Assembly: GCA_030695705.1 (NCBI GenBank)
Contig: JAUYPS010000048.1
Span: forward strand, 1 to 43,721
DNA: 43,721 nt
Direction of reading: 5' to 3'
From: a bacterium
GTDB taxonomy: Bacteria > Patescibacteriota > Minisyncoccia > 2-02-FULL-40-12 > IGHO2-12-FULL-4
Shown here: positions 4,548 to 43,721 of the stretch, in pieces
Position numbering within the stretch: the first letter of the stretch is position 1
Layout: every line of letters begins with the position of its first letter
Position numbers and translations under genes: made by a program
Notes under the pieces: generated by a model
Databases searched by the model: none
Told to the model about the DNA's origin: nothing
What the model saw: the letters and a program-made list of their open reading frames with translations, nothing else

Positions 4548-4706
4548 CTTCTTTTCAAATATGAGCTCGCCGGAATAAATAAGCGAAGATTTCTGAAATC
4601 AAGCCGGTTACAGAAAATTGGGTCGGATTCTTAGACGGGGTACCAATTTTTGTCGGCTTGATGAAGAAATCGAGTATTATTTATCGGCGAGTGATTCTTG
4701 AAAAGA
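4548..4706. repeat. Family D foldback element, copy D1 (~159 bp long hairpin, MITE-like)
   Basis: Self-complementary end to end (ttcttttcaa.../...ttgaaaagag; ctcgccggaataaata/tatttatcggcgag; aatcaagccgg/ccggcttgat). The ~87-nt core 4594-4680 differs at only 5 positions from 27107-27182. Confidence 0.8.
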
Positions 4707-10239: not shown

Positions 10240-11655
10240 TTGTTCCGTCAACAGTCCCCCAGACTGTTGACTCTCAAAAACTGTTCCCCTCCGCCTCTGG
10301 ATGATTTATTTCATGTTTCAAATTTAGCTTCACTCTTAATGGATGATCCAAAATTTTCGGTGCCGTCTAATTTACCGGTTGCCCAAGGGACGGCAGGTGT
10401 TCCGGCGCCTAAAAGCGATACCTCTTTCCGCTCTTCTATTCGGACCATGGAAAGCGATATAAAATCAGCTCAAACCGGGCAGACCCCTAAAGCATTTGAA
10501 GTTAAACCGCCCTTATTTTCTCCAACTCCTAAGCCGGTGCAACCCCCAGTTGCTATAAAGCCACTGTCTCCAATTCCAGGAGTTCCTCCTACCGGAATTA
10601 AACTAGGAGAAGCAGAAAAAAGAACTGCTCCTTTGCCGGGACAGGAAAAGTTAATCCCCTTTAGGCCGGAACAGAATCCGCCAGTTGGCAGATCGGAAAT
10701 TAAAGTAGCTCCTGCTACGCCCACTCCTCCTGTTGTTCCTGCGGCCCCGCTTCCGCTTCCGCCAATGTCTCCAAAACAACCTCCGGCACCGCTCGTCAGG
10801 CCCTTGCCAAGTCAGGGAGGTATTGCTGTTCCCCCGAAACAATTTTCTTTTGGAAATAAAAAAATCATGGCCGGCGCGGCACTGGTAGTTCTTATCGTAT
10901 TAGGCGGAATTTTGTATCTGCGCTCCGGACAAGAACCGGAAGATATTTCTGTAGCAACTCCCACGCCGTCTACCACCGTTTCTCCGGAGCTCACCTTGGG
11001 AGGAGGATCTTCTGTCACCACTTTATCCGGAATTTTTGGCCAGGCGTCCAGTACTGTTTTTCCAGGTATTTCCGACTCTTTCTCTACTTTTCAAAGTGGA
11101 ATGATTGGTTTAAGTAGTGATAATCCAAATAAAAACGTTTTAGTATCAATCAAAAAACCATCCGGAGAAAATTATAAGTTTTCAGAGTTTCTTGATCAAT
11201 TTTCAATTGTAGGTTTTCCAGTAAATTTAATCTCCGCTTTGGCAGACAACGATTTTAATTTAATTTTAACAAAACAAACAGAATTTTTTGACGAGAATGG
11301 GAAATTAATTGCTAATCCATCAGCCGAAATGCTTTTAACTCCCAAAATTGCTTTGGCGGTCAGAGTAATTGATGCCACGGAAGCCCGCAATCAGCTTACT
11401 TTGTGGGAAAATACGATGAAAGAAAGCTTTGGGGACTTTGGGGAATTTTATGATATTTTTTCGGTGCCAACGGAAAAAGTACCTTTCTCGGACAACCTTT
11501 ATCAAGGCGTTCCCATCAGATTTCTCAACTTTCCTTATGCGGACAAGGCCATTGATTACGCTATTGTTACCGCCAAAAACGGCAATGACTACTTAATTAT
11601 CGCCAACTCTCGAGAGCAAATGTACTCGATCATTGACAAACTGCTTGGCTTCTAA
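10240..11655 (+). CDS. Proline-rich, single-pass membrane protein of unknown function
   Basis: Long ORF with a Pro-rich low-complexity N-terminal half, a TM helix IMAGAALVVLIVLGGILYL, and a ~250-aa C-terminal domain. The start is uncertain: TTG at 10240 or ATG at 10339. Confidence 0.65.
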   Translation: MFRQQSPRLLTLKNCSPPPLDDLFHVSNLASLLMDDPKFSVPSNLPVAQGTAGVPAPKSDTSFRSSIRTMESDIKSAQTGQTPKAFEVKPPLFSPTPKPVQPPVAIKPLSPIPGVPPTGIKLGEAEKRTAPLPGQEKLIPFRPEQNPPVGRSEIKVAPATPTPPVVPAAPLPLPPMSPKQPPAPLVRPLPSQGGIAVPPKQFSFGNKKIMAGAALVVLIVLGGILYLRSGQEPEDISVATPTPSTTVSPELTLGGGSSVTTLSGIFGQASSTVFPGISDSFSTFQSGMIGLSSDNPNKNVLVSIKKPSGENYKFSEFLDQFSIVGFPVNLISALADNDFNLILTKQTEFFDENGKLIANPSAEMLLTPKIALAVRVIDATEARNQLTLWENTMKESFGDFGEFYDIFSVPTEKVPFSDNLYQGVPIRFLNFPYADKAIDYAIVTAKNGNDYLIIANSREQMYSIIDKLLGF

Positions 11656-11663
11656 CTGACCAT

Positions 11664-11739
11664 GCAAATCAGCCATACACCCACTTGAAGATTCCGAGCG
11701 ATAAGTCGAGGTCGAAAGTGGGTGGTATGGCCGATTTGC
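11664..11739. repeat. Family A palindromic element, copy A1 (intergenic, 76 bp, diverged)
   Basis: gcaaatcagccatacacccacttga...tcgaaagtgggtggtatggccgatttgc. It shares the termini and architecture of the copies at 26763, 42572 and 43667, and starts 9 nt after the upstream stop codon. Confidence 0.85.
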
Positions 11740-12365: not shown

Positions 12366-12393
12366 TACTATTTTAGAGGGATTTAAATAAAAC

Positions 12394-18397: not shown

Positions 18398-18426
18398 ATA
18401 AGTACAGTTAAAGCACTTAAACAACG

Positions 18427-18467
18427 GTTACACGGCAGCCCTGTGCAACACAGGGCTGCCGTGTAAC
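18427..18467. repeat. Family C palindrome, copy C1 (perfect 19-bp arms) in a 5' UTR
   Basis: gttacacggcagccctgtg-caa-cacagggctgccgtgtaac. The terminal 14-mers match the copy inside holA (31540-31579) at 13/14. It lies between the promoter above and the RBS aaggag. Confidence 0.8.
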
Positions 18468-18495
18468 GACGTGTAACGAACATAAAGGAGACGGT

Positions 18496-19257
18496 ATGAG
18501 AAAGATGGTTTTGATTGTTTTAATGTTTTTGGCGGTTCCGGTTTCGTCTTTCGCCCAGCACCGTTATTTGGGTGAGGGCGGGGCAAAGATTCTGCAATGC
18601 GCTCGGTTTTACTCTTCGCTCGAGGCACAACTGCTTTGCGCGAGAGGGGACGAGCTTTCGGCCGGCCAGATCGAAAGATTGGGCCTGGTCGATCGAAACG
18701 AGCGCATCGGTCAGTACGGTGGGAATTACGGCTATAACGGCGGGGACGGGTATTTTTACCCCACCGATTCCTACGGCCGACCGACAGGCACCCGCGAGCG
18801 GATTGTGACAGGTGGCGCCATTGGCGCATTACTTGGCGCAGGAGTTGGCGCAATCTTCAACCGAGGTGGCACTGGCGCATTACTTGGCGCAGGTGCTGGC
18901 GCAGTGGTTGGCGTAATCTCCGGCTCCAAAGCTGGCAAGAGGGCCAAGCAAGAAGCGCAGGTGCGGGAAACTCAATACCGTGCTGAGACGCAGGCCAGAG
19001 CCGAAGTTCAGCAGCAAGTCGCCGAGGAATCCCAACAGATTCCTCTAGTCATTCGAAATACAACCGGCTTCACGGCTCGATTGTATCAGGATGACAGGCG
19101 GGTTCGTGATCTCCGCCCGGGCCAGTCGTTTTCCGGTCCGGAAGCAGAGTACCGGGCCGAGCTGCGGGTTCCCGCTCGCGGCGGTTATGTGGAATTGGTC
19201 GAAGCGGAGCTTCGACCCCACGAGAGAGGGTGGGACATCGTCCCACCGAAGTTCTAG
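18496..19257 (+). CDS. Secreted glycine-zipper protein
   Basis: Signal peptide MRKMVLIVLMFLAVPVSSFAQ. Duplicated glycine-zipper segments GGAIGALLGAGVGAIF and GTGALLGAGAGAVVGVISG, also visible as a nucleotide repeat ggcgcattacttggcgcagg. Gln/Arg/Ala-rich coiled segment. Confidence 0.7.
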   Translation: MRKMVLIVLMFLAVPVSSFAQHRYLGEGGAKILQCARFYSSLEAQLLCARGDELSAGQIERLGLVDRNERIGQYGGNYGYNGGDGYFYPTDSYGRPTGTRERIVTGGAIGALLGAGVGAIFNRGGTGALLGAGAGAVVGVISGSKAGKRAKQEAQVRETQYRAETQARAEVQQQVAEESQQIPLVIRNTTGFTARLYQDDRRVRDLRPGQSFSGPEAEYRAELRVPARGGYVELVEAELRPHERGWDIVPPKF

Positions 19258-19260
19258 TTA

Positions 19261-19310
19261 AGCCCCTGCGCTTGCTGTGATAAACAGCGGGCGGCAGGGG
19301 CGCTTTTTTA
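19261..19310 (+). terminator. Rho-independent terminator
   Basis: gcccctgc...ctgt-gataa-acag...gcaggggc followed by a T6 run. Confidence 0.7.
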
Positions 19311-19368
19311 TGTGGAGTGTGTTTAAGTAAAGAAACAACTGTTCCTATCAAATCAAAGGAGAATTTCC

Positions 19369-26530: not shown

Positions 26531-27061
26531 ATGAACGGGAAAGAATTTATCACTCAAAATACCAAAGAAACCCAGAAATTGGGGGGGATTTTGGCTAAAG
26601 AAATCGTTAGCAAACCTTCTTCGGAAAAAGCAGCGGTTATTGGCTTGGAGGGGGAGTTAGGAGCAGGTAAGACCACCTTCATAAAAGGTTTCGCCAAGGC
26701 CTTGGGAATAAAAGAAAAGATCTTAAGCCCCACTTTTGTTTTGATTAAGTCATATAAAATCGGCAAATCAGCCATACATCCACTCGAAAATTCTCGAGCG
26801 ACAAGTCGAGGGTCGAGAGTGGGTGGTATGGCTGATTTGCCGACTAACGAATATAAATTTTTAGTGCACATCGAGGCCTATCGCTTAAAAGACCATCGGG
26901 GTTTGCTTCCTTTAGGAATTAAAGAAATTTTAGCCGATCCGCAAAACATTATTCTGATTGAATGGTCAGACCGGGTTGCAAAAATCCTTCCCAGGAAATA
27001 CATCAAAATACACGTAGATCATATTGAAGAAAATATTAGGAAAATAAGAATACGCACCTAA
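26531..27061 (+). CDS. tsaE: tRNA t6A37 biosynthesis ATPase TsaE, carrying an in-frame palindromic-element insertion
   Basis: GLEGELGAGKTTFIKGFAKAL (Walker A), SPTFVLIKSY and HIEAYRL. At 176 aa it is about 26 aa longer than usual because of element A2. Confidence 0.85.
   Translation: MNGKEFITQNTKETQKLGGILAKEIVSKPSSEKAAVIGLEGELGAGKTTFIKGFAKALGIKEKILSPTFVLIKSYKIGKSAIHPLENSRATSRGSRVGGMADLPTNEYKFLVHIEAYRLKDHRGLLPLGIKEILADPQNIILIEWSDRVAKILPRKYIKIHVDHIEENIRKIRIRT
26763..26840. repeat. Family A palindromic element, copy A2 (78 bp, in frame inside tsaE)
   Basis: gcaaatcagccatacatccactcgaaaattctcgagcgacaagtcgagggtcgagagtgggtggtatggctgatttgc. It is translated as (G)KSAIHPLENSRATSRGSRVGGMADL(P). Confidence 0.9.
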
Positions 27062-27062
27062 T

Positions 27063-27219
27063 ATTTTTCAAATATGGTTGAGCGGTGCAAATAAACGAAG
27101 GTTTTGGAAATCAAGCCGGTAACAAAAATTGGGTCGGATTCTTAGACGGGGTACCAATTTTTGTCGGCTTGATGACAAAATCGAGTATAATTTGCCCGCG
27201 AAGATATCTTGTAAAATAT
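27063..27219. repeat. Family D foldback element, copy D2 (between tsaE and polA)
   Basis: Same architecture as D1. The core 27107-27182 is about 94% identical to 4594-4680. It occupies almost the whole tsaE-polA spacer. Confidence 0.8.
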
Positions 27220-27238: not shown

Positions 27239-29899
27239 ATGAAAAAGTTAATTTTAATCGACGCCAATGCTCTTGTTCACCGGGCTTTCCACGCTTTGCC
27301 TCCGCTTACTTCTCCGGAAGGAATGGTGGTCAATGCCGTTTACGGATTTACCTCGGTTCTAATCAAAGCGATTAAAGACATGAAGCCGGACTATATGGCG
27401 GCGGCCTTTGATTTGGCCGGGCCGACTTTCCGTCATGAGGAGTTTGAGGAGTACAAAGCGCATCGCGAAAAAGCGCCCGATGAACTTTATGCCCAGATTC
27501 CGGTAATTAAAGATATGCTTCGCTCTTTCGGGGTGGAAATATTTGAGCAGGCCGGATTTGAGGCCGACGATTTGATCGGTTCGGTGGCGGAAGAAGCCAA
27601 GAAAGTCAAAGATTTACAGACGGTCATCTTGACGGGGGACTTGGACACTCTTCAGCTGGTGGATGACGAAAAAGTGCTGGTTTTAACTTTGCGCAAAGGA
27701 GTGAGTGACACGGTTTTATACGACGAGAAAGCGGTTAAAGAGCGATACGGCTTAGAACCGTATCAGGTTACTGATTTTAAGGGACTGAAAGGCGATCCAT
27801 CCGACAACATTCCCGGCGTGTCCGGAATCGGAGACAAAACCGCCACGGCTTTGCTTCAAGAATACGAAACTATCGAAAATCTTTACAAAGTTATCCACAC
27901 GCCAGGTTGGACCTTGCAGAAGGGGAAGGGGGTGTTGACGGTTAAATTAGTTGAAAAACTTAAGGAACATCAGGAACAGGCCATTTTCAGTAAACGGCTG
28001 GCGACTATAATTCGGGACGTAAAAATTAATTTTTCCTTGGCGGGAATTGACTGGCAGAACAAGTTCAATCGGGAAGAAATTGTCAGGTTACTGAAGGGTC
28101 TTGGGTTCCACAGTATTTTGCCGCGCTTGAACAATCTTGGCGTCGGTCCGGAACCGGAAGCAGTTGTGCCTGTCCAGATTGGTTTAGAACTGGAAAACAA
28201 AGCAGATCCTAAGTTACCTGTTAAAGCATGCAAAAATGAAAAAGATATTAACGAATTTCTCGATAAATTAAAGCCGGACCAGCCAGTTTATATTTACTAC
28301 AGTGAAAATAACTTCTATTTTTTACAAAGTTATCCACATGCCAGGTTGGACCTGGTAAAGGTGCCGGTTAATTTGATAAAAAATCTCCGGTCATTTTTCG
28401 AAGATGAACAAATACCGAAAAGGGGATATAACTTAAAACCTCTGATTAAAGTACTTCTCGACCACGGCATTCATTTAAAAAATTTGGATTTTGATATTGC
28501 CGTGGCTGCTTATTTGTCGCGGTCTGAAACGCGTGACTATGAGATTGATAAAATTTATTTTACTGAATTTGGCCAGTCGTTATCCGACGGCCCCTTGGCG
28601 ACCATAACCGCTTTGCCCAAATTATATGATGTCTTTTGGGATAAACTTAAGACAAAAAACTTAAATAGGGTTTTTCAGGAAGTTGATCTGCCTTTAGTGC
28701 CGGTGTTGGCTGAAATGGAAAGAAACGGAATTAAAATCGATTTGGATGGCCTAAAGACCCTTTCTCAAAAAGTCGAAAAGGAAGTTATTAAATTAGAGAA
28801 AGAGATTTATAAAATGGCCGGTGAGGAATTTAATATCAGTTCCCCCCAGCAGCTGGGCAAAATATTATTTGATAAACTGCTTTTAAAAACCAAAGTGCGC
28901 AAGACGCTGGGAGGAGCGCGGTCTACTGCTGTCTCTGAACTGGAAAAACTAAGAGACGAACATCCGATTATTGAATTAATTATTCAATATCGCGAATTGC
29001 AGAAACTCAAGACCACTTATATTGAGCCGTTTCCTGTTTTGGTTAATGCCAAGGACCAGCGTCTCCACACCACTTACAATCAGATGGGTACGGTTACCGG
29101 CCGGCTTTCCAGCCAGGATCCGAACCTACAGAATATTCCTATTCGGACTGAGTTGGGCCAGGAATTTCGCCGGACTTTTGTAGCGGAAGACGGTTACGAA
29201 TTAATTTCCTTAGATTATTCCCAACTTGAACTTCGCATTGCCGCTTTTTTATCCGGCGACCAAAAAATGCTTGATGCTTTCAGAAGAGGAGAGGATATTC
29301 ATACCCGCACGGCGGTGGAAATTTTTGAAGTTTCTCCGGAAAAAGTCACCCCCAATATGCGGCGCGAAGCCAAGGCGCTGAACTTTGGCATTTTATACGG
29401 CATGGGGGTTTTGGGATTTGCCCGTTCGGCGGGAGTGGATCGTTTGCGGGCTAGGGAATTTATTACCAAATATTTCAAGGAATTTTCAGGAATGGCCCGC
29501 TATATTGAGCATCTGAAAGAACAAGTCAGGAAAAATGGCTTTGTAGAAACATATTTCGGACGACGAAGGGAGTTGCCGGAAATTAATTCCGGTCTGCCCC
29601 AACTGGTAGCCCAGGCGGAAAGGATGGCTTCCAATGCCCCTATTCAGGGCACGGAGGCGGATATAATGAAACTGGCCATGATTAAGGTTTATGATTACGT
29701 TCATGCCGGTCATTTAGAAAGTGAAGCTCGCATTTTGCTTCAAGTCCACGATGAGCTATTATGTGAGGTGAAAGAGGAGAAAGCTCGGGAATTATCCTTA
29801 AAATTCAAGGAAATCATGGAGAAGGTCTGGGAGGTAGATGTGCCGATTATTGTTGACGTTAAAATAGGTAAAAACTGGGCGGAAATGAAAAAAATATAA
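27239..29899 (+). CDS. polA: DNA polymerase I
   Basis: 886 aa. 5'-nuclease domain (LILIDANALVHRAFHAL; GDPSDNIPGVSGIGDKTA). Polymerase motifs DYSQLELRIAAFLSGD, RREAKALNFGILYG and QVHDELL. Confidence 0.97.
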   Translation: MKKLILIDANALVHRAFHALPPLTSPEGMVVNAVYGFTSVLIKAIKDMKPDYMAAAFDLAGPTFRHEEFEEYKAHREKAPDELYAQIPVIKDMLRSFGVEIFEQAGFEADDLIGSVAEEAKKVKDLQTVILTGDLDTLQLVDDEKVLVLTLRKGVSDTVLYDEKAVKERYGLEPYQVTDFKGLKGDPSDNIPGVSGIGDKTATALLQEYETIENLYKVIHTPGWTLQKGKGVLTVKLVEKLKEHQEQAIFSKRLATIIRDVKINFSLAGIDWQNKFNREEIVRLLKGLGFHSILPRLNNLGVGPEPEAVVPVQIGLELENKADPKLPVKACKNEKDINEFLDKLKPDQPVYIYYSENNFYFLQSYPHARLDLVKVPVNLIKNLRSFFEDEQIPKRGYNLKPLIKVLLDHGIHLKNLDFDIAVAAYLSRSETRDYEIDKIYFTEFGQSLSDGPLATITALPKLYDVFWDKLKTKNLNRVFQEVDLPLVPVLAEMERNGIKIDLDGLKTLSQKVEKEVIKLEKEIYKMAGEEFNISSPQQLGKILFDKLLLKTKVRKTLGGARSTAVSELEKLRDEHPIIELIIQYRELQKLKTTYIEPFPVLVNAKDQRLHTTYNQMGTVTGRLSSQDPNLQNIPIRTELGQEFRRTFVAEDGYELISLDYSQLELRIAAFLSGDQKMLDAFRRGEDIHTRTAVEIFEVSPEKVTPNMRREAKALNFGILYGMGVLGFARSAGVDRLRAREFITKYFKEFSGMARYIEHLKEQVRKNGFVETYFGRRRELPEINSGLPQLVAQAERMASNAPIQGTEADIMKLAMIKVYDYVHAGHLESEARILLQVHDELLCEVKEEKARELSLKFKEIMEKVWEVDVPIIVDVKIGKNWAEMKKI
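27890..27928. repeat. Family B element, copy B3 (inside polA; right arm decayed)
   Basis: gttatccacacgccaggttggaccttgcagaag... shares tttacaaaGTTATCCACA-GCCAGGTTGGACCT with copy B4. It is translated as VIHTPGWTLQKGKG. Confidence 0.6.
28329..28367. repeat. Family B element, copy B4 (inside polA, different reading frame; right arm decayed)
   Basis: gttatccacatgccaggttggacctggtaaaggtgcc..., translated as SYPHARLDLVKVP. Confidence 0.6.
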
Positions 29900-30870: not shown

Positions 30871-31760
30871 CCCTCTCACTCTATTATGGAACGGATAGTT
30901 TTCGAGTTAAGGAAGCAGTAGAGAAAAAGGCCGCTTCTTTTTTGGCTAAATACAAAGACGGTTTGGTGGAGAGGTTGGATTTTGAGAAGGAAAATTGTCT
31001 GGAAGAAGTGGAAAATATTTTGAAAAGACGCTCTTTTTTCAATGAGCCGGAATTAATAATCGTTTATGCCCATATTTCCGCCAAGGACTTGCCAAAAAAG
31101 AATAAAAAACTTTTTGAACTTTTAACCAAGAAAGCGGAAGAAACAAAAGAATTTGAAAGCATCAAAGGATCTGCCTTGGAAAAGTGGGCTTTGGAGAAAA
31201 TAACCCAAGCCGGTTTTAGCATAAAATCACTGGCTCTAAAAAAACTGATTCTTCGAGTTGTTTCGCAAGGGCAGTTGTCCCAGGAAATTGATAAGCTGAT
31301 CGCTTACCAAAGTTATCACGGCAAAAAGGAAATAGACGACCAAGCCCTAGTTATCCACTTACCAGGTTGGACCTGGAATGTGGATAACTTTGCTTTGATT
31401 GATGCTATTGGGTCTCGCGATATTAAAAAATCAGTAGCGCTTTTAAACCAAACCTTGGCTGATGGTATGGAGCCGCATGCTGTTTTGGGCCAAATTATTT
31501 ACCAATTCAGAAATTTGTTGAAGGTAAAGAGTTACACGGCTGCCGTGTATATACACGGCAGCCGTGTAACTGTCGAGAATATTGCTAAGCTAACCGGTCT
31601 GCATCCTTTTGTCGCTCAAAAAACCAGCCGACAAGCCAGACAGTTCGAGTTAGAAGAATTAAAAAAGGCCTATCGGTATTTATCGGAACTGGATATAACA
31701 TCAAAAACCGGCCAAGTTGATTTAACGGCCGGTTTGTTTCAGCTTTTATTGCAAATTTAG
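30867..31760 (+). CDS. holA: DNA polymerase III delta subunit (HolA-like), carrying two palindromic insertions
   Basis: 297 aa. The N-terminus LYYGTDSFRVKEAVEKK and overall layout are typical of short HolA proteins. The start overlaps the upstream stop (ATGA). Confidence 0.7.
   Translation: MTLSLYYGTDSFRVKEAVEKKAASFLAKYKDGLVERLDFEKENCLEEVENILKRRSFFNEPELIIVYAHISAKDLPKKNKKLFELLTKKAEETKEFESIKGSALEKWALEKITQAGFSIKSLALKKLILRVVSQGQLSQEIDKLIAYQSYHGKKEIDDQALVIHLPGWTWNVDNFALIDAIGSRDIKKSVALLNQTLADGMEPHAVLGQIIYQFRNLLKVKSYTAAVYIHGSRVTVENIAKLTGLHPFVAQKTSRQARQFELEELKKAYRYLSELDITSKTGQVDLTAGLFQLLLQI
31350..31388. repeat. Family B palindrome, copy B2 (39 bp = 13 codons, in frame inside holA)
   Basis: gttatccacttaccagg-ttgga-cctggaatgtggataac, with 2 mismatches in the 17-bp arms. 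Translated as VIHLPGWTWNVDN. Confidence 0.85.
31540..31579. repeat. Family C palindrome, copy C2 (perfect 20+20 bp, inside holA)
   Basis: gttacacggctgccgtgtat|atacacggcagccgtgtaac. Translated as (S)YTAAVYIHGSRVT. Confidence 0.85.
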
Positions 31761-41421: not shown

Positions 41422-41422
41422 A

Positions 41423-41461
41423 GTTATCCACATCCCAGGTCCAACCTGGGATGTGGATAAC
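41423..41461. repeat. Family B palindrome, copy B1 (perfect 17-bp arms), acting as a hairpin between convergent genes
   Basis: gttatccacatcccagg-tccaa-cctgggatgtggataac. The loop is inverted relative to the holA/polA copies. It starts 2 nt after the methyltransferase stop and touches the recG stop codon. Confidence 0.8.
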
Positions 41462-43656
41462 TATTCGAAGTGGCGGATTTTTTGGAATTGGGCCAGTTGA
41501 TTTTTGAGTAAAGGATAAGATGATAATCCCGGATCTTCTTTAAGTAAAAGCTTGGCTTCTAACCGGGCTTTTTTTATTAATTCTAAATCAGTCAGAGAGG
41601 CCATAGCCAGATCCGGCATTCCGGATTGTTTGTTTCCGGTAAATTCTCCCGGTCCGCGTAATTTCAAGTCCTCTTCAGCTAACTGGAATCCGTCTTCACA
41701 ATTTTCCAAACATTTGAGCCGTTTATTTTCGAAGCGATTATCTCCGCCGTTGACCAAAAGGCAGGAGGACTGATGTTCAGCGCGTCCGACTCGCCCGCGG
41801 AATTGATGAAGCTGGGCCAGGCCAAATCTTTCCGCATTCTCAATTAGCATGACCGAAGCGTTGGGGATATCGACACCCACTTCCACTACGGAAGTGGAGA
41901 CCAGAATGTCGTAAAAGCCGTTTTTGAATCCGGCCATTATTTTTTCTTTTTCTTTTGGTTTCATTTTTCCGTGAAGCATGGCAATTTTAAACTGCGGAAA
42001 AATCTTTTTAGAAAGCTTTTCGTATTCTTCGGTGACGGCTTTTACTTCCGACCAAAGCACATTCATTTTGTCTTTGCCGTTTTTGGCTTTTATTGTTTCT
42101 TGGGGGTTAGCCAGTTCAATGCGGGGACAGATTACAAAGATCTGCCGGCCAGCTTTTATCTCTTTTTCCAGAAATTGATAGGCCTTTTGTTCCTGATTTT
42201 TTGCAATTACTTTAGTCGTAATTTTTTTGCGATTTTTTGGTTTTTCTTTAATCAAAGAAATATCCAGATCTCCATAAATAGTTAGGGCCAGAGTGCGGGG
42301 GATAGGAGTGGCCGTCATACTCAAGAGATGCGGAACGTGGGCGGAGTTTTTAAGCAGAGCGGCCCGCTGTTCAACTCCAAATCGATGCTGTTCATCTAAA
42401 ATTGCCAATCCTAGTTCTTTGAATCTGACATCTTTTTGGATAACTGCATGCGTGCCGATTAAAATCCCGATTTCTCCTTTGGCAATTTTTTCTTGCATTA
42501 TTTTCTTGCTTACTTTTTTCTCTAGACCGTTACGGCTAAATCGGGCCTCACTTCCGGTAAGTAGCCCAATTACTAAACCAGGCAAGTCAGCCGTATGCCC
42601 ACTCGAAAATTCCCGAGCGACAAGTCGAGGGTCGAGAGTGGGTGGTATGGCTGATTTGCCTAATAAAGAAGTTATTGTGCCGAAGTGTTGGCGGGCCAGA
42701 ATCTCGGTCGGAGCCATAAAGACCGCCTGTTTTTTTTGGCGGGCTGTTTGGTAAGCAGCTGTTAAGGCCACCACGGTTTTACCAGAGCCAACGTCTCCAT
42801 TCAAAAGACGGTTCATGGGGTATTTTTTTTCCAGATCTTTTAGAATCTCAAAGGTCGCTATTTTTTGGTCGCCGGTCAGTTCAAAGGGCAAAGAATCAAC
42901 AAAACTTTTTACTTTTTGCGGTTCAAATTTTATGGGGACAGATTTTAGCTGCAAAGCTTGCCGGCGACTGGCAATTGATTTTAATTGGAATAAAAATAAT
43001 TCCTCAAAAGCCATTCTTTGTCTTGACTGTTTTGCCTCTTCTGGAGAATCCGGGAAATGGATACTTTTGACGGCGGAATTAAGTGAAGGGAAATCATATT
43101 TTTCTAGAACGTGTTTCGGCAAGGGATCAGATGAAATGTCCACAGCAGATAAGAGGGGCTTTATTAAAAAACGGAGATATTTAGAAGTTACTCCTTCTGT
43201 TTCCGGGTAGACCGGAACAAGTCGGCCGGTATGAGTCGGAAAGTTAGAGGTGAGTTTTTCGTAAGCGGGATTAGAAAGGTATAATCCGTGCTTATCTAAA
43301 GATGTTTTTCCAGAAATACTGACCCGGGTCTCTAAAGGAAGGGAATTTTCCAGATAGGGCTGATTGAACCAGATCGCCCGCACCACTCCGCTGTGATCCT
43401 GAACGAAGGCCTCCGTTACCGATCTTCTGTGCCACAAAGAAGTTGTTTTTATTTTTATAATCTCTCCTTGCAGAGAAACTATTTCCCCGGGTTCACGGAT
43501 TTCTTCCGCCGGTACTTGCCGTCTATAATCTTCGTAGCGATGAGGAAAATGCCATAACAAACCCCTGACTGTTTCAATGCCGAGTTTTTTTAGGCGCGGC
43601 AAATTTTTTGATCCTACCCCGGAAAGTTTTTCGATGGGAGTATCGAGAGGAAGCAT
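41461..43656 (-). CDS. recG: ATP-dependent DNA helicase RecG, carrying an in-frame palindromic-element insertion
   Basis: 731 aa. N-terminus LSGVGSKNLPRLKKLGIETVRGLLWHFPHRYEDY, wedge domain, and helicase motifs GDVGSGKT, DEQHRFGV, MTATPIPRT and QLHQFRGRVGR. Confidence 0.95.
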   Translation of the reverse strand: MLPLDTPIEKLSGVGSKNLPRLKKLGIETVRGLLWHFPHRYEDYRRQVPAEEIREPGEIVSLQGEIIKIKTTSLWHRRSVTEAFVQDHSGVVRAIWFNQPYLENSLPLETRVSISGKTSLDKHGLYLSNPAYEKLTSNFPTHTGRLVPVYPETEGVTSKYLRFLIKPLLSAVDISSDPLPKHVLEKYDFPSLNSAVKSIHFPDSPEEAKQSRQRMAFEELFLFQLKSIASRRQALQLKSVPIKFEPQKVKSFVDSLPFELTGDQKIATFEILKDLEKKYPMNRLLNGDVGSGKTVVALTAAYQTARQKKQAVFMAPTEILARQHFGTITSLLGKSAIPPTLDPRLVAREFSSGHTADLPGLVIGLLTGSEARFSRNGLEKKVSKKIMQEKIAKGEIGILIGTHAVIQKDVRFKELGLAILDEQHRFGVEQRAALLKNSAHVPHLLSMTATPIPRTLALTIYGDLDISLIKEKPKNRKKITTKVIAKNQEQKAYQFLEKEIKAGRQIFVICPRIELANPQETIKAKNGKDKMNVLWSEVKAVTEEYEKLSKKIFPQFKIAMLHGKMKPKEKEKIMAGFKNGFYDILVSTSVVEVGVDIPNASVMLIENAERFGLAQLHQFRGRVGRAEHQSSCLLVNGGDNRFENKRLKCLENCEDGFQLAEEDLKLRGPGEFTGNKQSGMPDLAMASLTDLELIKKARLEAKLLLKEDPGLSSYPLLKNQLAQFQKIRHFE
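42572..42649. repeat. Family A palindromic element, copy A3 (78 bp, in frame inside recG, antisense orientation relative to the gene)
   Basis: gcaagtcagccgtatgcccactcgaaaattcccgagcgacaagtcgagggtcgagagtgggtggtatggctgatttgc. On the recG strand it is translated as (G)KSAIPPTLDPRLVAREFSSGHTADL(P). Confidence 0.9.
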
Positions 43657-43666
43657 GGTCTTATTA

Positions 43667-43721
43667 GCAAATCAGCCATACACCCACTCGAAAATTCCCG
43701 AGCGACAAGTCGAGGGTCGAG
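43667..43721. repeat. Family A palindromic element, copy A4 (left part; truncated by window end)
   Basis: gcaaatcagccatacacccactcgaaaattcccgagcgacaagtcgagggtcgag. It begins 10 nt beyond the recG start codon, i.e. in the recG 5' leader. Confidence 0.85.

Follow-up and report, generated by a model that had tools for sequence, protein, structure and literature searches.

The recG gene near the right-hand end of the window (the whole 43,721-nt stretch of DNA analysed here) contains an 80-nt hairpin repeat, beginning GGCAAGTC and ending GATTTGCC, which lies in frame and antisense to the gene. A preliminary description had placed a 78-bp element at 42572–42649; the repeat is real, but these coordinates are about 10 nt too far to the left, and the 78-nt core occupies 42582–42659. 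Another copy is read in the sense direction within tsaE, a third is intergenic, and a fourth is incomplete (Table 1). When the window is scanned with a covariance model built on the family these are the only copies found, all of them on the forward strand as had been described; full copies score 85–104 bits as opposed to 29–41 bits on the reverse strand (101 and 29 bits respectively for c3), and no chance matches are expected in the window (none in 100 shuffles). The intergenic copy c1 begins 9 nt past the stop codon of an open reading frame at 10240–11655, and its deletions disrupt the frames that genic copies use; c4 is just upstream of the recG start codon and would therefore fall in the recG 5′ leader. 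Predicted folding energies range from −48.6 to −55.8 kcal/mol with z-scores from −8 to −11, that of c3 being −48.6 kcal/mol on the forward strand (z = −8.2).

Table 1. Positions of the hairpin repeat copies, their parts and their host genes in the window.
Feature	Coordinates	Strand	Remarks
Copy c1, intergenic	11664..11739	+	85 bits; two 1-nt deletions
tsaE, 176 aa, host of c2	26531..27061	+	Pfam TsaE match in two parts, split by the insert
Copy c2, in tsaE, sense	26762..26841	+	104 bits; reads GKSAIHPLENSRATSRGSRVGGMADLP
recG, 731 aa, host of c3	41461..43656	-	100% match to NCBI MAG RecG; 1GM5 E = 8.5e-139
Copy c3, 80-nt hairpin repeat	42581..42660	+ (own orientation)	in frame within - strand recG
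c3 5′ arm, GGCAAGTCAGCCGTATGCCCACTC	42581..42604	+	four transitions relative to consensus
c3 conserved core	42605..42635	+	internal loops, inner stem, apical loop
c3 3′ arm, GAGTGGGTGGTATGGCTGATTTGCC	42636..42660	+	carries the extra unpaired base
Copy c4, 5′ arm and core only, cut by contig end	43666..43721	+	10 nt upstream of recG ATG

The element starts with GGCAAATC and ends with GATTTGCC. Its outer stem of 24 bp, in which the 3′ arm is longer by one base, is joined through an internal loop to an inner stem of 6 bp that is closed by an apical loop of 8 nt; the arms are terminal inverted repeats of 24–25 nt, and the palindrome is asymmetric because of the extra unpaired base. In c3 the core is composed, in order, of a GAAAAT internal loop, the inner stem with a bulged A, the apical loop GCGAnnAG, and a 3′ internal loop TCGA. 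Among 48 aligned copies, 97.3% of outer-stem cells and 99.7% of inner-stem cells are paired, compensatory double changes are seen in 11 of the 24 outer-stem pairs, the loops are nearly invariant, and the 3′-arm bulge is present in 47 copies. None of 500 shuffles reaches the observed pairing and covariation, and slid controls pair at 32–40%. The two strands are not equivalent: G·U outnumbers A·C by 16 pair types to 6, and the forward strand folds more stably in 44 of 49 copies. The 5′-arm transitions of c3 give G·U pairs on the forward strand and C·A mismatches on the recG mRNA strand, and suggested that genic copies evolve weaker hairpins in the mRNA; this idea was rejected, as the forward strand has a stability advantage of 3–4 kcal/mol whether a copy is forward-genic, reverse-genic or non-genic.

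In both tsaE and recG the codon phase is set by the hairpin's first base on the strand that is read, so that the two genes read the element in frame from opposite strands, as the preliminary description had held. The resulting peptides share the ends GKSAI…ADLP and have different, hydrophilic middles, the whole recG peptide being GKSAIPPTLDPRLVAREFSSGHTADLP (RecG residues 333–359). Because the arms are near-perfect inverted repeats in one codon phase, both strands are open in the first-base phase. Four of the six frames of the consensus are open, which has a probability of 0.20 among shuffled hairpins of equal composition and of 0.05 at genome composition; stop-codon depletion is thus a weak sign of adaptation, and the earlier proposal that selection acts on the element for tolerability in open reading frames is not supported as it stood, as any such effect is inseparable from filtering at the level of the host. 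The clearest signal of selection is the covariation of the hairpin rather than its coding capacity. The conserved reading frames do suggest that the element is translated as part of the host proteins, and the junction-spanning tryptic peptides, if translated, would include SAIPPTLDPR and EFSSGHTADLPGLVIGLLTGSEAR for RecG and SAIHPLENSR for TsaE.

The RecG insert is located between FMAPTEILARQH and GLLTGS. It is absent from the RecG proteins of T. maritima (1GM5) and E. coli (9WM0), and 115 of the 120 closest homologues lack it as well; in a neighbour-joining tree computed without support values the five carriers can be explained by three or more gains or else by several precise losses. Where the palindrome is missing, the linker after motif Ia is short, in agreement with the earlier account of an insertion there, and each RecG orthologue with the 26–27-aa segment whose DNA was read also has the palindrome. 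The insert junctions match exactly between the window recG and that of locus L003; the closest empty orthologues are about 70–76% identical, with linkers that are unalignable at the nucleotide level and so give no exact insertion length. An exhaustive protein search with the 31-aa RecG segment returned two matches, from a query too short (few bits) to be fit for counts. Locus L015 of the metagenome scan also bears a recG, which is similar to P0002. In an AlphaFold2 model, RecG residues 334–357 are coil with pLDDT below 50, flanked by regions at 84–93, and the loop sits between a helix at 318–332 (the motif Ia helix) and a strand at 362–366. The 27 residues are lineage-specific and predicted to be disordered, and they probably form a surface loop that the protein tolerates.

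RecG orthologues as distant as 63% identity (P0012) nonetheless keep the peptide, and inserts occupy shared sites in TsaD and SpoU over several genomes, as might be expected of a functional protein module, perhaps an interaction or regulatory loop, whose retention in RecG and the other hosts is explained by selection on the protein; the apparent recruitment of a second reverse frame as the start of a signal peptide (see below) could be taken the same way. We think this very unlikely, given that two unrelated middles are found at one site in orthologues, that the same DNA is also intergenic, that AlphaFold2 predicts disorder in the RecG segment, and that nucleotide changes compensate the stem rather than conserve the peptide. 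A tolerated loop remains our preferred reading.

About 60 distinct copies of the element were found in 56 groundwater metagenome loci from related Patescibacteria, and the metagenome-assembled genome CAZOKW01 has at least nine copies on five contigs. As the two scans behind these counts looked for exact 21–22-nt words from the core, divergent relatives are unsampled and conservation of the 3′ core is partly built in. Two of nine contig matches, L009 (Acidimicrobiaceae) and L010 (Chloroflexi), were rejected as chance matches having only the 22-mer in common. Approximately 36 copies are internal to long intact open reading frames. Apart from RecG, which was identified separately, Pfam names ten hosts: TsaE, TsaD, MurF, UvrC, HolB, a SpoU methylase, GT1 and GT2 glycosyltransferases, a PGI-like isomerase and a class-V aminotransferase. 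For four of these (TsaD, SpoU, the aminotransferase and TsaE) the Pfam match falls into two stretches.

Frame use in this census is non-random and the host reading frames are intact, contrary to what random insertion followed by pseudogenisation would give. The GKSA…ADLP frame, which the preliminary description had suggested might always be used, is the one read in most internal copies (about 30 of about 36; some 17 in forward frame 1 and some 13 in reverse frame 1), the exceptions being 81-nt variants and the second reverse frame. Five copies are forward hybrids in which the 81-nt variant is read in frame 2 and then in frame 1; the second reverse frame, which is hydrophobic (…RVGVWLIC), is used in four genomes, in each case at the N-terminal end of a secreted protein. 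The two stop-containing frames are unused except in one diverged partial copy (L050) with a mutated stop, and a nested variant, longer by 48 or 51 nt, therefore keeps the frame.

These patterns also bear on whether the element is taken out, either ahead of translation or following it, in the manner of a small intron, of an intervening sequence processed by RNase or of an intein-like segment, such that the peptides are never present in RecG or TsaE. The hairpin is very stable inside mRNAs, and these bacteria have many intervening sequences in their rRNA genes (the 16S gene of L022 spans 2.68 kb and has group I intron-like matches). Excision, however, would require neither open frames nor lengths divisible by three. 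The internal genic copies, roughly 36 of them, are nevertheless all open and in frame, a one-base shift in entry phase compensates for the length of the 81-nt variants, the nested variant adds whole codons, and frame-breaking deletions occur only in intergenic copy c1. The choice of frame moreover tracks the protein context, hydrophilic in soluble loops and hydrophobic in the signal peptide, and among four loci with copies Rfam gave only weak, generic hairpin matches (miRNA models) and no intron or ribozyme match to the element. Removal is therefore highly improbable, and we favour retention of the element as a tolerated part of its host proteins.

Use of both strands proves to be more extensive than had been claimed, in that single slots in TsaD and MurF hold the element either way round. 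In TsaD the copy is forward in L065 and reverse in L055 with identical flanks (TGAAAAGTTT|...|ACAAATTA), and in MurF it is forward in L024 and reverse in L033 at the same nucleotide position. Forward and reverse states are interspersed in a neighbour-joining tree of TsaD (without support values), which also has many empty sites, and two tsaD paralogues on one contig have opposite orientations. These observations suggest that copies change orientation in place, although independent insertion both ways round at one nucleotide would, strictly, also account for them. The common orientation of the four window copies does not reflect a fixed orientation relative to replication, as opposite orientations are found 2–5 kb apart in L004, L012 and L065. 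At orthologous sites the element is 86–94% identical, compared with 68–81% for flanking coding DNA. Retention of this kind, with better conservation than in the neighbouring coding DNA, is odd for junk and could mean a host function. Separately, a T at alignment column 27 occurs in 7 of 9 CAZOKW01 copies and in 4 of 39 elsewhere; this genome-specific variant speaks for homogenisation of copies within a genome.

Conservation above that of the flanking DNA, together with the strong covariation, the nearly invariant loops, the extrahelical base and the strand asymmetry in G·U pairs and folding energy, is consistent with a structured RNA or DNA hairpin that benefits the host (in protein binding, processing or termination, or as a nucleoid or replication signal) and for which location within a reading frame is incidental; c1, c4 and a copy at 12392–12471 of L001 all lie just past a stop codon or just before a start codon. 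Such an explanation seems unlikely overall. A role at the mRNA level is hard to square with one gene slot holding either orientation relative to transcription, close orthologues manage without the element, its hosts are functionally unrelated, the core is conserved in part because of the way copies were searched for, and Rfam 15 has no match in the window at gathering thresholds. We thus continue to regard the element as a dispersed, tolerated palindrome and turn to whether it belongs to a known class.

Among 52 copies, direct repeats of 2–5 nt at the boundaries are at or below chance, an apparent GC…GC boundary repeat is part of the self-complementary stem, and no target consensus was found at copy boundaries. 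No transposase, RAYT or TnpA gene was seen in the window, and no parent insertion sequence with the same ends was found in the window or in about 360 kb of related loci (about 400 kb in all). With no transposase, target-site duplication or target consensus found, it is the patchy distribution and the copy number, and these only, that suggest the element is mobile. Hammerhead (CUGANGA…GAAA), k-turn and attC box patterns were judged by eye and none fits. An integron attC site was rejected, as RYYYAAC and GTTRRRY boxes are absent, the ends are GGCAAATC and GATTTGCC, and copies are inside housekeeping reading frames. Membership of the REP/RAYT class was likewise rejected for an 80-nt, mostly genic element that starts with GGCAAATC and has no RAYT gene nearby, as was a classical MITE, for which the terminal inverted repeats are present but target-site duplication is not. 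Five properties typical of Rickettsia palindromic elements (RPEs) are seen: a dispersed multi-copy repeat, with a predicted long stem-loop, in frame in intact genes, absent from most orthologues, and in a predicted loop position.

RPEs are 105–150 nt long (Ogata et al. 2000, 2002, as summarised in PMC2229807 and PMC10969869), protein-coding palindromic repeats have also been described in Wolbachia (Ogata 2005, via PMC2229807), and an experiment with an RPE-minus guanylate kinase is on record (PMC2229807). The resemblance covers small dispersed hairpin repeats in a reduced genome, both intergenic and in frame in intact housekeeping genes, without clear target-site duplication, with several families per lineage and with inserts thought to lie at fold-tolerant positions. 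We do not claim membership of RPE families 1–10 by sequence, as there is no evident sequence relation, the host phylum is Patescibacteria, and the element is shorter at 80 nt. The dense stem covariation, the conserved asymmetric bulge and the nested variant of +48 or +51 nt also set it apart. It is used in frame both ways round, even in one slot of orthologous genes, whereas for RPE-1 inserts in open reading frames essentially one reading frame is known.

MITEs with long inverted repeats (Correia/NEMIS, ERIC and RUP; PMC2229807, PMC3184786) are of similar size class, with inverted termini that fold into stem-loops, high copy number, co-transcription with neighbours and occasional open-frame copies within genes. 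The element differs from them in having neither TA nor other target duplication or consensus and in that most of the copies found are inside reading frames; its arms covary rather than stay constant, and this points to recognition of structure and not of arm sequence. Structure is likewise recognised on one strand, without target duplication, in REP/BIME sequences with RAYT (TnpA-REP) and at the hairpin ends of IS200/IS605 (PMC3733652), and the strand asymmetry and extrahelical base of the element resemble these single-strand transposase substrates. REPs are, however, 20–40 nt, extragenic and tagged with GTAG or CGTC at one end (PMC3733652), and the orientation of the element, unlike theirs, is mixed within a few kb in the three loci noted above. 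PARCELs are similar in being dyad-symmetric coding DNA that yields related peptides from either strand and is associated with mobility, but they form tandem arrays in which an amphipathic motif of 25 residues is repeated, and they lie in surface proteins with no known function. The element, by contrast, enters loops of conserved enzymes as a single copy, and the middles of its two peptides bear no relation to each other. Integron attC sites are imperfect palindromes of 57–141 bp in which the folded single strand with its extrahelical bases matters and structure is conserved more than sequence; the element is not between gene cassettes, has no integrase context, and has a highly conserved core sequence.

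Taken together, we believe that the element is probably a dispersed, non-autonomous, protein-coding palindrome of about 80 bp, similar in kind to RPEs, in a groundwater Patescibacteria (Paceibacteria-like) lineage, which host proteins tolerate as a disordered loop and of which copies are gained, lost and turned round. In recG the antisense element would be translated as a 27-residue loop between the helix following motif Ia and the next β-strand, and the helicase would tolerate it. Permissive loops may gain or lose copies, and copies may be homogenised or re-amplified within genomes; flipping in place would probably occur through recombination or template switching between the arms, or through conversion from another copy. 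Selection would keep the hairpin at the level of single-stranded nucleic acid with a slight preference for one strand, the likely reason being that the folded form is what gets copied, moved or converted. Beyond this, and more doubtfully, the element may be mobile or convertible DNA of a new, structured and strand-specific kind, in which a single-stranded hairpin with covarying stems, invariant loops and a fixed extrahelical base is the substrate of an unrecognised, duplication-free copying or homing mechanism in Patescibacteria; it would also flip in place and so toggle a surface loop of essential enzymes (RecG, TsaD, MurF) between two peptides.

Protein-coding palindromes have hitherto been viewed as a peculiarity of Rickettsia and Wolbachia. 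The finding points to a sequence-unrelated family, and hints at several others, in the Candidate Phyla Radiation with its ultra-small genomes, and suggests that hairpin repeats recurrently invade permissive protein loops when genomes are streamlined and intergenic space is scarce. It offers an explanation for many odd lineage-specific inserts in conserved Patescibacteria proteins, and is relevant to annotation in that inserts inflate protein lengths and split domain matches. The family also poses the mechanistic question of how a hairpin is maintained, moved and flipped in place without target duplication or a visible transposase, and serves as a natural test of where RecG, TsaD and MurF can accommodate 27 additional residues in their loops.

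A covariance model built from the element family finds exactly four copies in the window, all on the + strand as the preliminary description had it, and since full copies score 85–104 bits versus 29–41 bits on the opposite strand, their orientation is unambiguous. The repeat within recG is real, an 80-nt hairpin, although it had been placed at 42572–42649 and its position is corrected in the table. The peptides reported for recG (− strand; GKSAIPPTLDPRLVAREFSSGHTADLP) and tsaE (+ strand; GKSAIHPLENSRATSRGSRVGGMADLP) are correct, as are their shared ends and equivalent phase.

The outer stem of the hairpin is 24 bp with one additional base on the 3' arm, and encloses an internal loop (GAAAAY facing TCGA) and a 6 bp inner stem with a bulged A, capped by an 8-nt loop, GCGAnnAG. 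The recG copy folds as RNA at −48.6 kcal/mol on the + strand (z = −8.2) and −38 kcal/mol on the − strand, and DNA folding parameters give an identical hairpin shape. In long variants of 128–131 nt the apical loop encloses a further hairpin (GGAGATTCT-stem-GCTAAAGCA-stem-AGAAACTTCTCC), with a covarying nested stem (GTCGG/CCGAC versus GGGCGG/CCGCCC); nesting adds 48 or 51 nt, so the reading frame is kept, and one SpoU site has the long form in one locus (L022) and the short form in another (L068). The element matches no Rfam family, we saw no target-site duplication or target motif at copy boundaries, and no transposase lies near it in the window, where neighbours include PNPase, DksA, a ComM-like ATPase, PolA, HolA and a methyltransferase.

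Coordinates of the element copies and associated features (L-numbers are loci from related genomes or metagenomes)
Feature	Source	Coordinates	Strand	Remarks
Element c1	window	11664–11739	+	intergenic, directly after stop codon; two 1-nt deletions
Element c2	window	26762–26841	+	inside tsaE
Element c3	window	42581–42660	+	inside recG (gene on − strand)
Element c4	window	43666–43721	+	truncated by contig end; 10 nt upstream of recG ATG
Long variant	L022	1560–1687
Long variant	L023	912–1042
Long variant	L040	5415–5545
Long variant	L025, L039, L046
Second palindromic family	window	41422–41462; 31349–31389
Second palindromic family	window	27889–27929; 28328–28368		weaker
Direct repeat	window	4577–4704; 27089–27215		second copy begins 28 nt past tsaE stop
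Strong hairpin	window	31527–31574	both	within holA
Strong hairpin	window	18423–18471; 19250–19315	both
Other RecG/TsaD palindromic inserts	L003	10499–10582; 10823–10924
Other RecG/TsaD palindromic insert	L001	11408–11476
tsaD paralogues	L067	8860–10023; 12059–13243		same strand
Secreted protein, second-reverse-frame start	L005	4654–5376
Secreted protein, second-reverse-frame start	L035	676–1392; 2237–3013
Secreted protein, second-reverse-frame start	L052, L064
Extended 16S rRNA gene	L022	4048–6730		2.68 kb
Group II intron domain match	L022	3625–3739		near extended 16S gene

The window is an entire contig (43,721 bp) from a metagenome-assembled bacterium; its RecG shows 100% identity to an NCBI MAG protein, and the nearest named relatives belong to Parcubacteria/Paceibacterota and Yanofskybacteria. 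When 22 close RecG proteins are aligned, a 27-residue insert falls between the post-motif-Ia helix (FMAPTEILARQH) and the strand GLLTGS, and most orthologues have only about 5 residues here, bearing out the short linker expected between motif Ia and GLLTGS. RecG of T. maritima (1GM5) and E. coli (9WM0) is without the insert, and of the 120 best homologues just 5 have it. In a neighbour-joining tree these are P0001/P0002/P0004; P0003, whose sister P0008 is empty; and P0012, whose sister P0011 is empty, a pattern that calls for three or more gains at a single site, or else for several precise losses. No homologous 26-aa segment was found in orthologues lacking the palindrome; the palindrome itself is present at the same recG junction in the DNA of two carriers (L003 and L001). 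In the AlphaFold2 model residues 334–357 are coil with pLDDT <50, between a helix (318–332) and a strand (362–366), and the flanking regions have pLDDT of 84–93. The same linker site holds a different insert, 'FQFPISNEIPNQKSQ', in P0017, P0020 and P0034.

Two exact-word scans, of genome contigs and of metagenome contigs, locate at least nine copies in one MAG (CAZOKW01, which encodes P0004) and further copies in 56 loci from groundwater metagenomes (Rifle, Hainich and others), for a total of about 60 distinct copies; both scans demanded an exact 21–22-nt core word, and conservation of that stretch is therefore partly built in. Two matches in unrelated phyla are chance 22-mers with no element. 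The MAG (GCA_964580765.1) is labelled 'Candidatus Saccharibacteria', yet its RecG (NCBI name 'Parcubacteria group bacterium Gr01-1014_44') clusters with Paceibacteria-like sequences, and the label may be a misassignment. About 36 copies are well within long intact ORFs. Ten hosts are identified by Pfam (TsaE, TsaD, MurF, UvrC, DNA polymerase III delta', SpoU methylase, GT1 and GT2 glycosyltransferases, a PGI-like isomerase and a class-V aminotransferase), and for four (TsaD, SpoU, aminotransferase, TsaE) the match is reported as two stretches; RecG was identified separately, and a PMT-like transferase and an O-antigen ligase were judged by eye. One host-bearing locus, L022, also has an extended 16S rRNA gene with group I intron-like matches and hairpin inserts, and a group II intron domain match nearby.

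Four of the six frames of the consensus element are open; the other two, the third on each strand, have a single TGA within the terminal GGCTGATTTGCC. Two-way coding capacity had been taken as a pointer to selection, but four open frames have a chance probability of P = 0.20 given the element composition, or 0.05 given the genome composition, and are not by themselves evidence of adaptation. With frame 1 starting at the first hairpin base, and orientation relative to the host gene, about 17 genic copies are read in forward frame 1 and about 13 in reverse frame 1. To the question whether genic copies always use the GKSA...ADLP frame, the answer is that most do; the exceptions are five 81-nt hybrids, read in frame 2 and then frame 1, and copies in the second reverse frame. 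The only use of the latter (ANQPYHPLSTLDLSLGNFRVGVWLIC; ending RVGVWLIC) is as the N-terminal start of a secreted protein (about 240 aa) present in four genomes, in which it continues into a hydrophobic signal sequence; in L035 a half copy likewise starts a neighbouring gene's protein. The stop-containing frames are used by no genic copy except L050, which is partial and diverged and has a mutated stop. Host ORFs are intact and frame use is far from random, not the random frames and pseudogenisation that might have been seen. Frame choice tracks protein context, the outcome expected of a translated segment with host-protein tolerance acting as a filter on insertions, and these data count strongly against removal of the element before translation.

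Both orientations occur in one slot. In TsaD, after ...AEKF, three loci (L014, L043, L065) have the element forward and two (L036, L055) have it reversed; flanks in L065 and L055 are identical (TGAAAAGTTT, 80 nt, ACAAATTA), so the element fills exactly the same nucleotides either way. The MurF slot is forward in L024 and reverse in L033, with a rare T:A stem variant in both. Two tsaD paralogues 2 kb apart in L067 share the site of the element but carry it in opposite orientations; the second paralogue also has a divergent C-terminus and an additional insert of another family. Relative to its neighbours the element has no fixed orientation, and the tree of the 30 closest TsaD sequences intermixes forward, reverse, degenerate, remnant and empty states. 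Only 'SKSKIPPL' is left at TsaD site 2 of P0138, and 'LLTLDSRLFP' or 'LLTIDDRLFP' at site 1; these apparent remnants, seen in P0138, P0126, P0127 and P0133–P0135, suggest decay by partial internal deletion of old copies. As there is no target consensus, it would be more economical for the element to invert in place, or to be converted by another copy via the mutually homologous arms, than to insert repeatedly with nucleotide precision. Rival readings are a host-beneficial structured element and a functional peptide module; use of two orientations counts against function at the mRNA level or the peptide level.

Pairing in the outer stem reaches 97.3% over 48 distinct copies, with compensatory double changes in 11 of 24 stem pairs (e.g. 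CC/GG to AA/TT or GA/TC; A/T to C/G); none of 500 shuffles reached the observed pairing values, and slid controls paired at 32–40%. Leaving out the invariant wobble and terminal pair, G.U outnumbers A.C by 16 to 6 pair types. The forward strand folds more stably in 44 of 49 copies irrespective of gene orientation, and the additional base is on the 3' arm in every aligned copy but one. At orthologous sites the element is 86–94% identical versus 68–81% for 300 nt of flanking coding sequence. The best-supported reading is that the unit under selection is the folded single strand. A derived T at alignment column 27 is concentrated in one genome (7/9 copies versus 4/39 elsewhere), a distribution indicative of homogenisation or amplification inside a genome.

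A second palindromic family in the window (AGTTATCCACA..CCAGG...CCTGG..TGTGGATAACT) has arms containing the DnaA-box consensus TTATCCACA. One copy, which forms a perfect 19-bp hairpin, lies between the methyltransferase ORF and recG where these two converge; another is in frame within holA (peptide LVIHLPGWTWNVDNF), and polA has two 71% matches. Three strong hairpins, low-score covariance-model matches on both strands, may represent further elements of palindromic type. The window also has a direct repeat, about 130 bp long and 82–87% identical between copies. RecG and TsaD of relatives carry other lineage-specific in-frame inserts that are likewise DNA palindromes (P0003, P0007, P0008, P0024, P0128 and P0136), including an AT-rich 'ESGIMNQESEKSIIHNSKF' element and a hairpin 102 nt long that folds at −37 kcal/mol. 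Together with the second family in holA, these make in-frame palindrome insertion look general in this lineage.

The best-supported interpretation is that the element is a dispersed hairpin repeat and a protein-coding palindrome like the Rickettsia palindromic elements (RPEs), which with their Wolbachia counterparts are the closest known phenomenon (PMC2229807, PMC10969869, PMC1166351). Beyond the RPE features in reviews, it uses both strands in one slot, and has dense stem covariation with a fixed bulge, and a nested variant. Literature searches gave no earlier account linking palindromic or miniature inverted-repeat elements, or RPE work, with the Candidate Phyla Radiation, Patescibacteria, Parcubacteria or metagenomes; the kind is already known, and the family and host phylum appear new. 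On this reading the repeat has colonised conserved proteins of a streamlined genome at permissive loops, where it would be translated as a disordered loop, and its copies would be gained, lost, homogenised and flipped.
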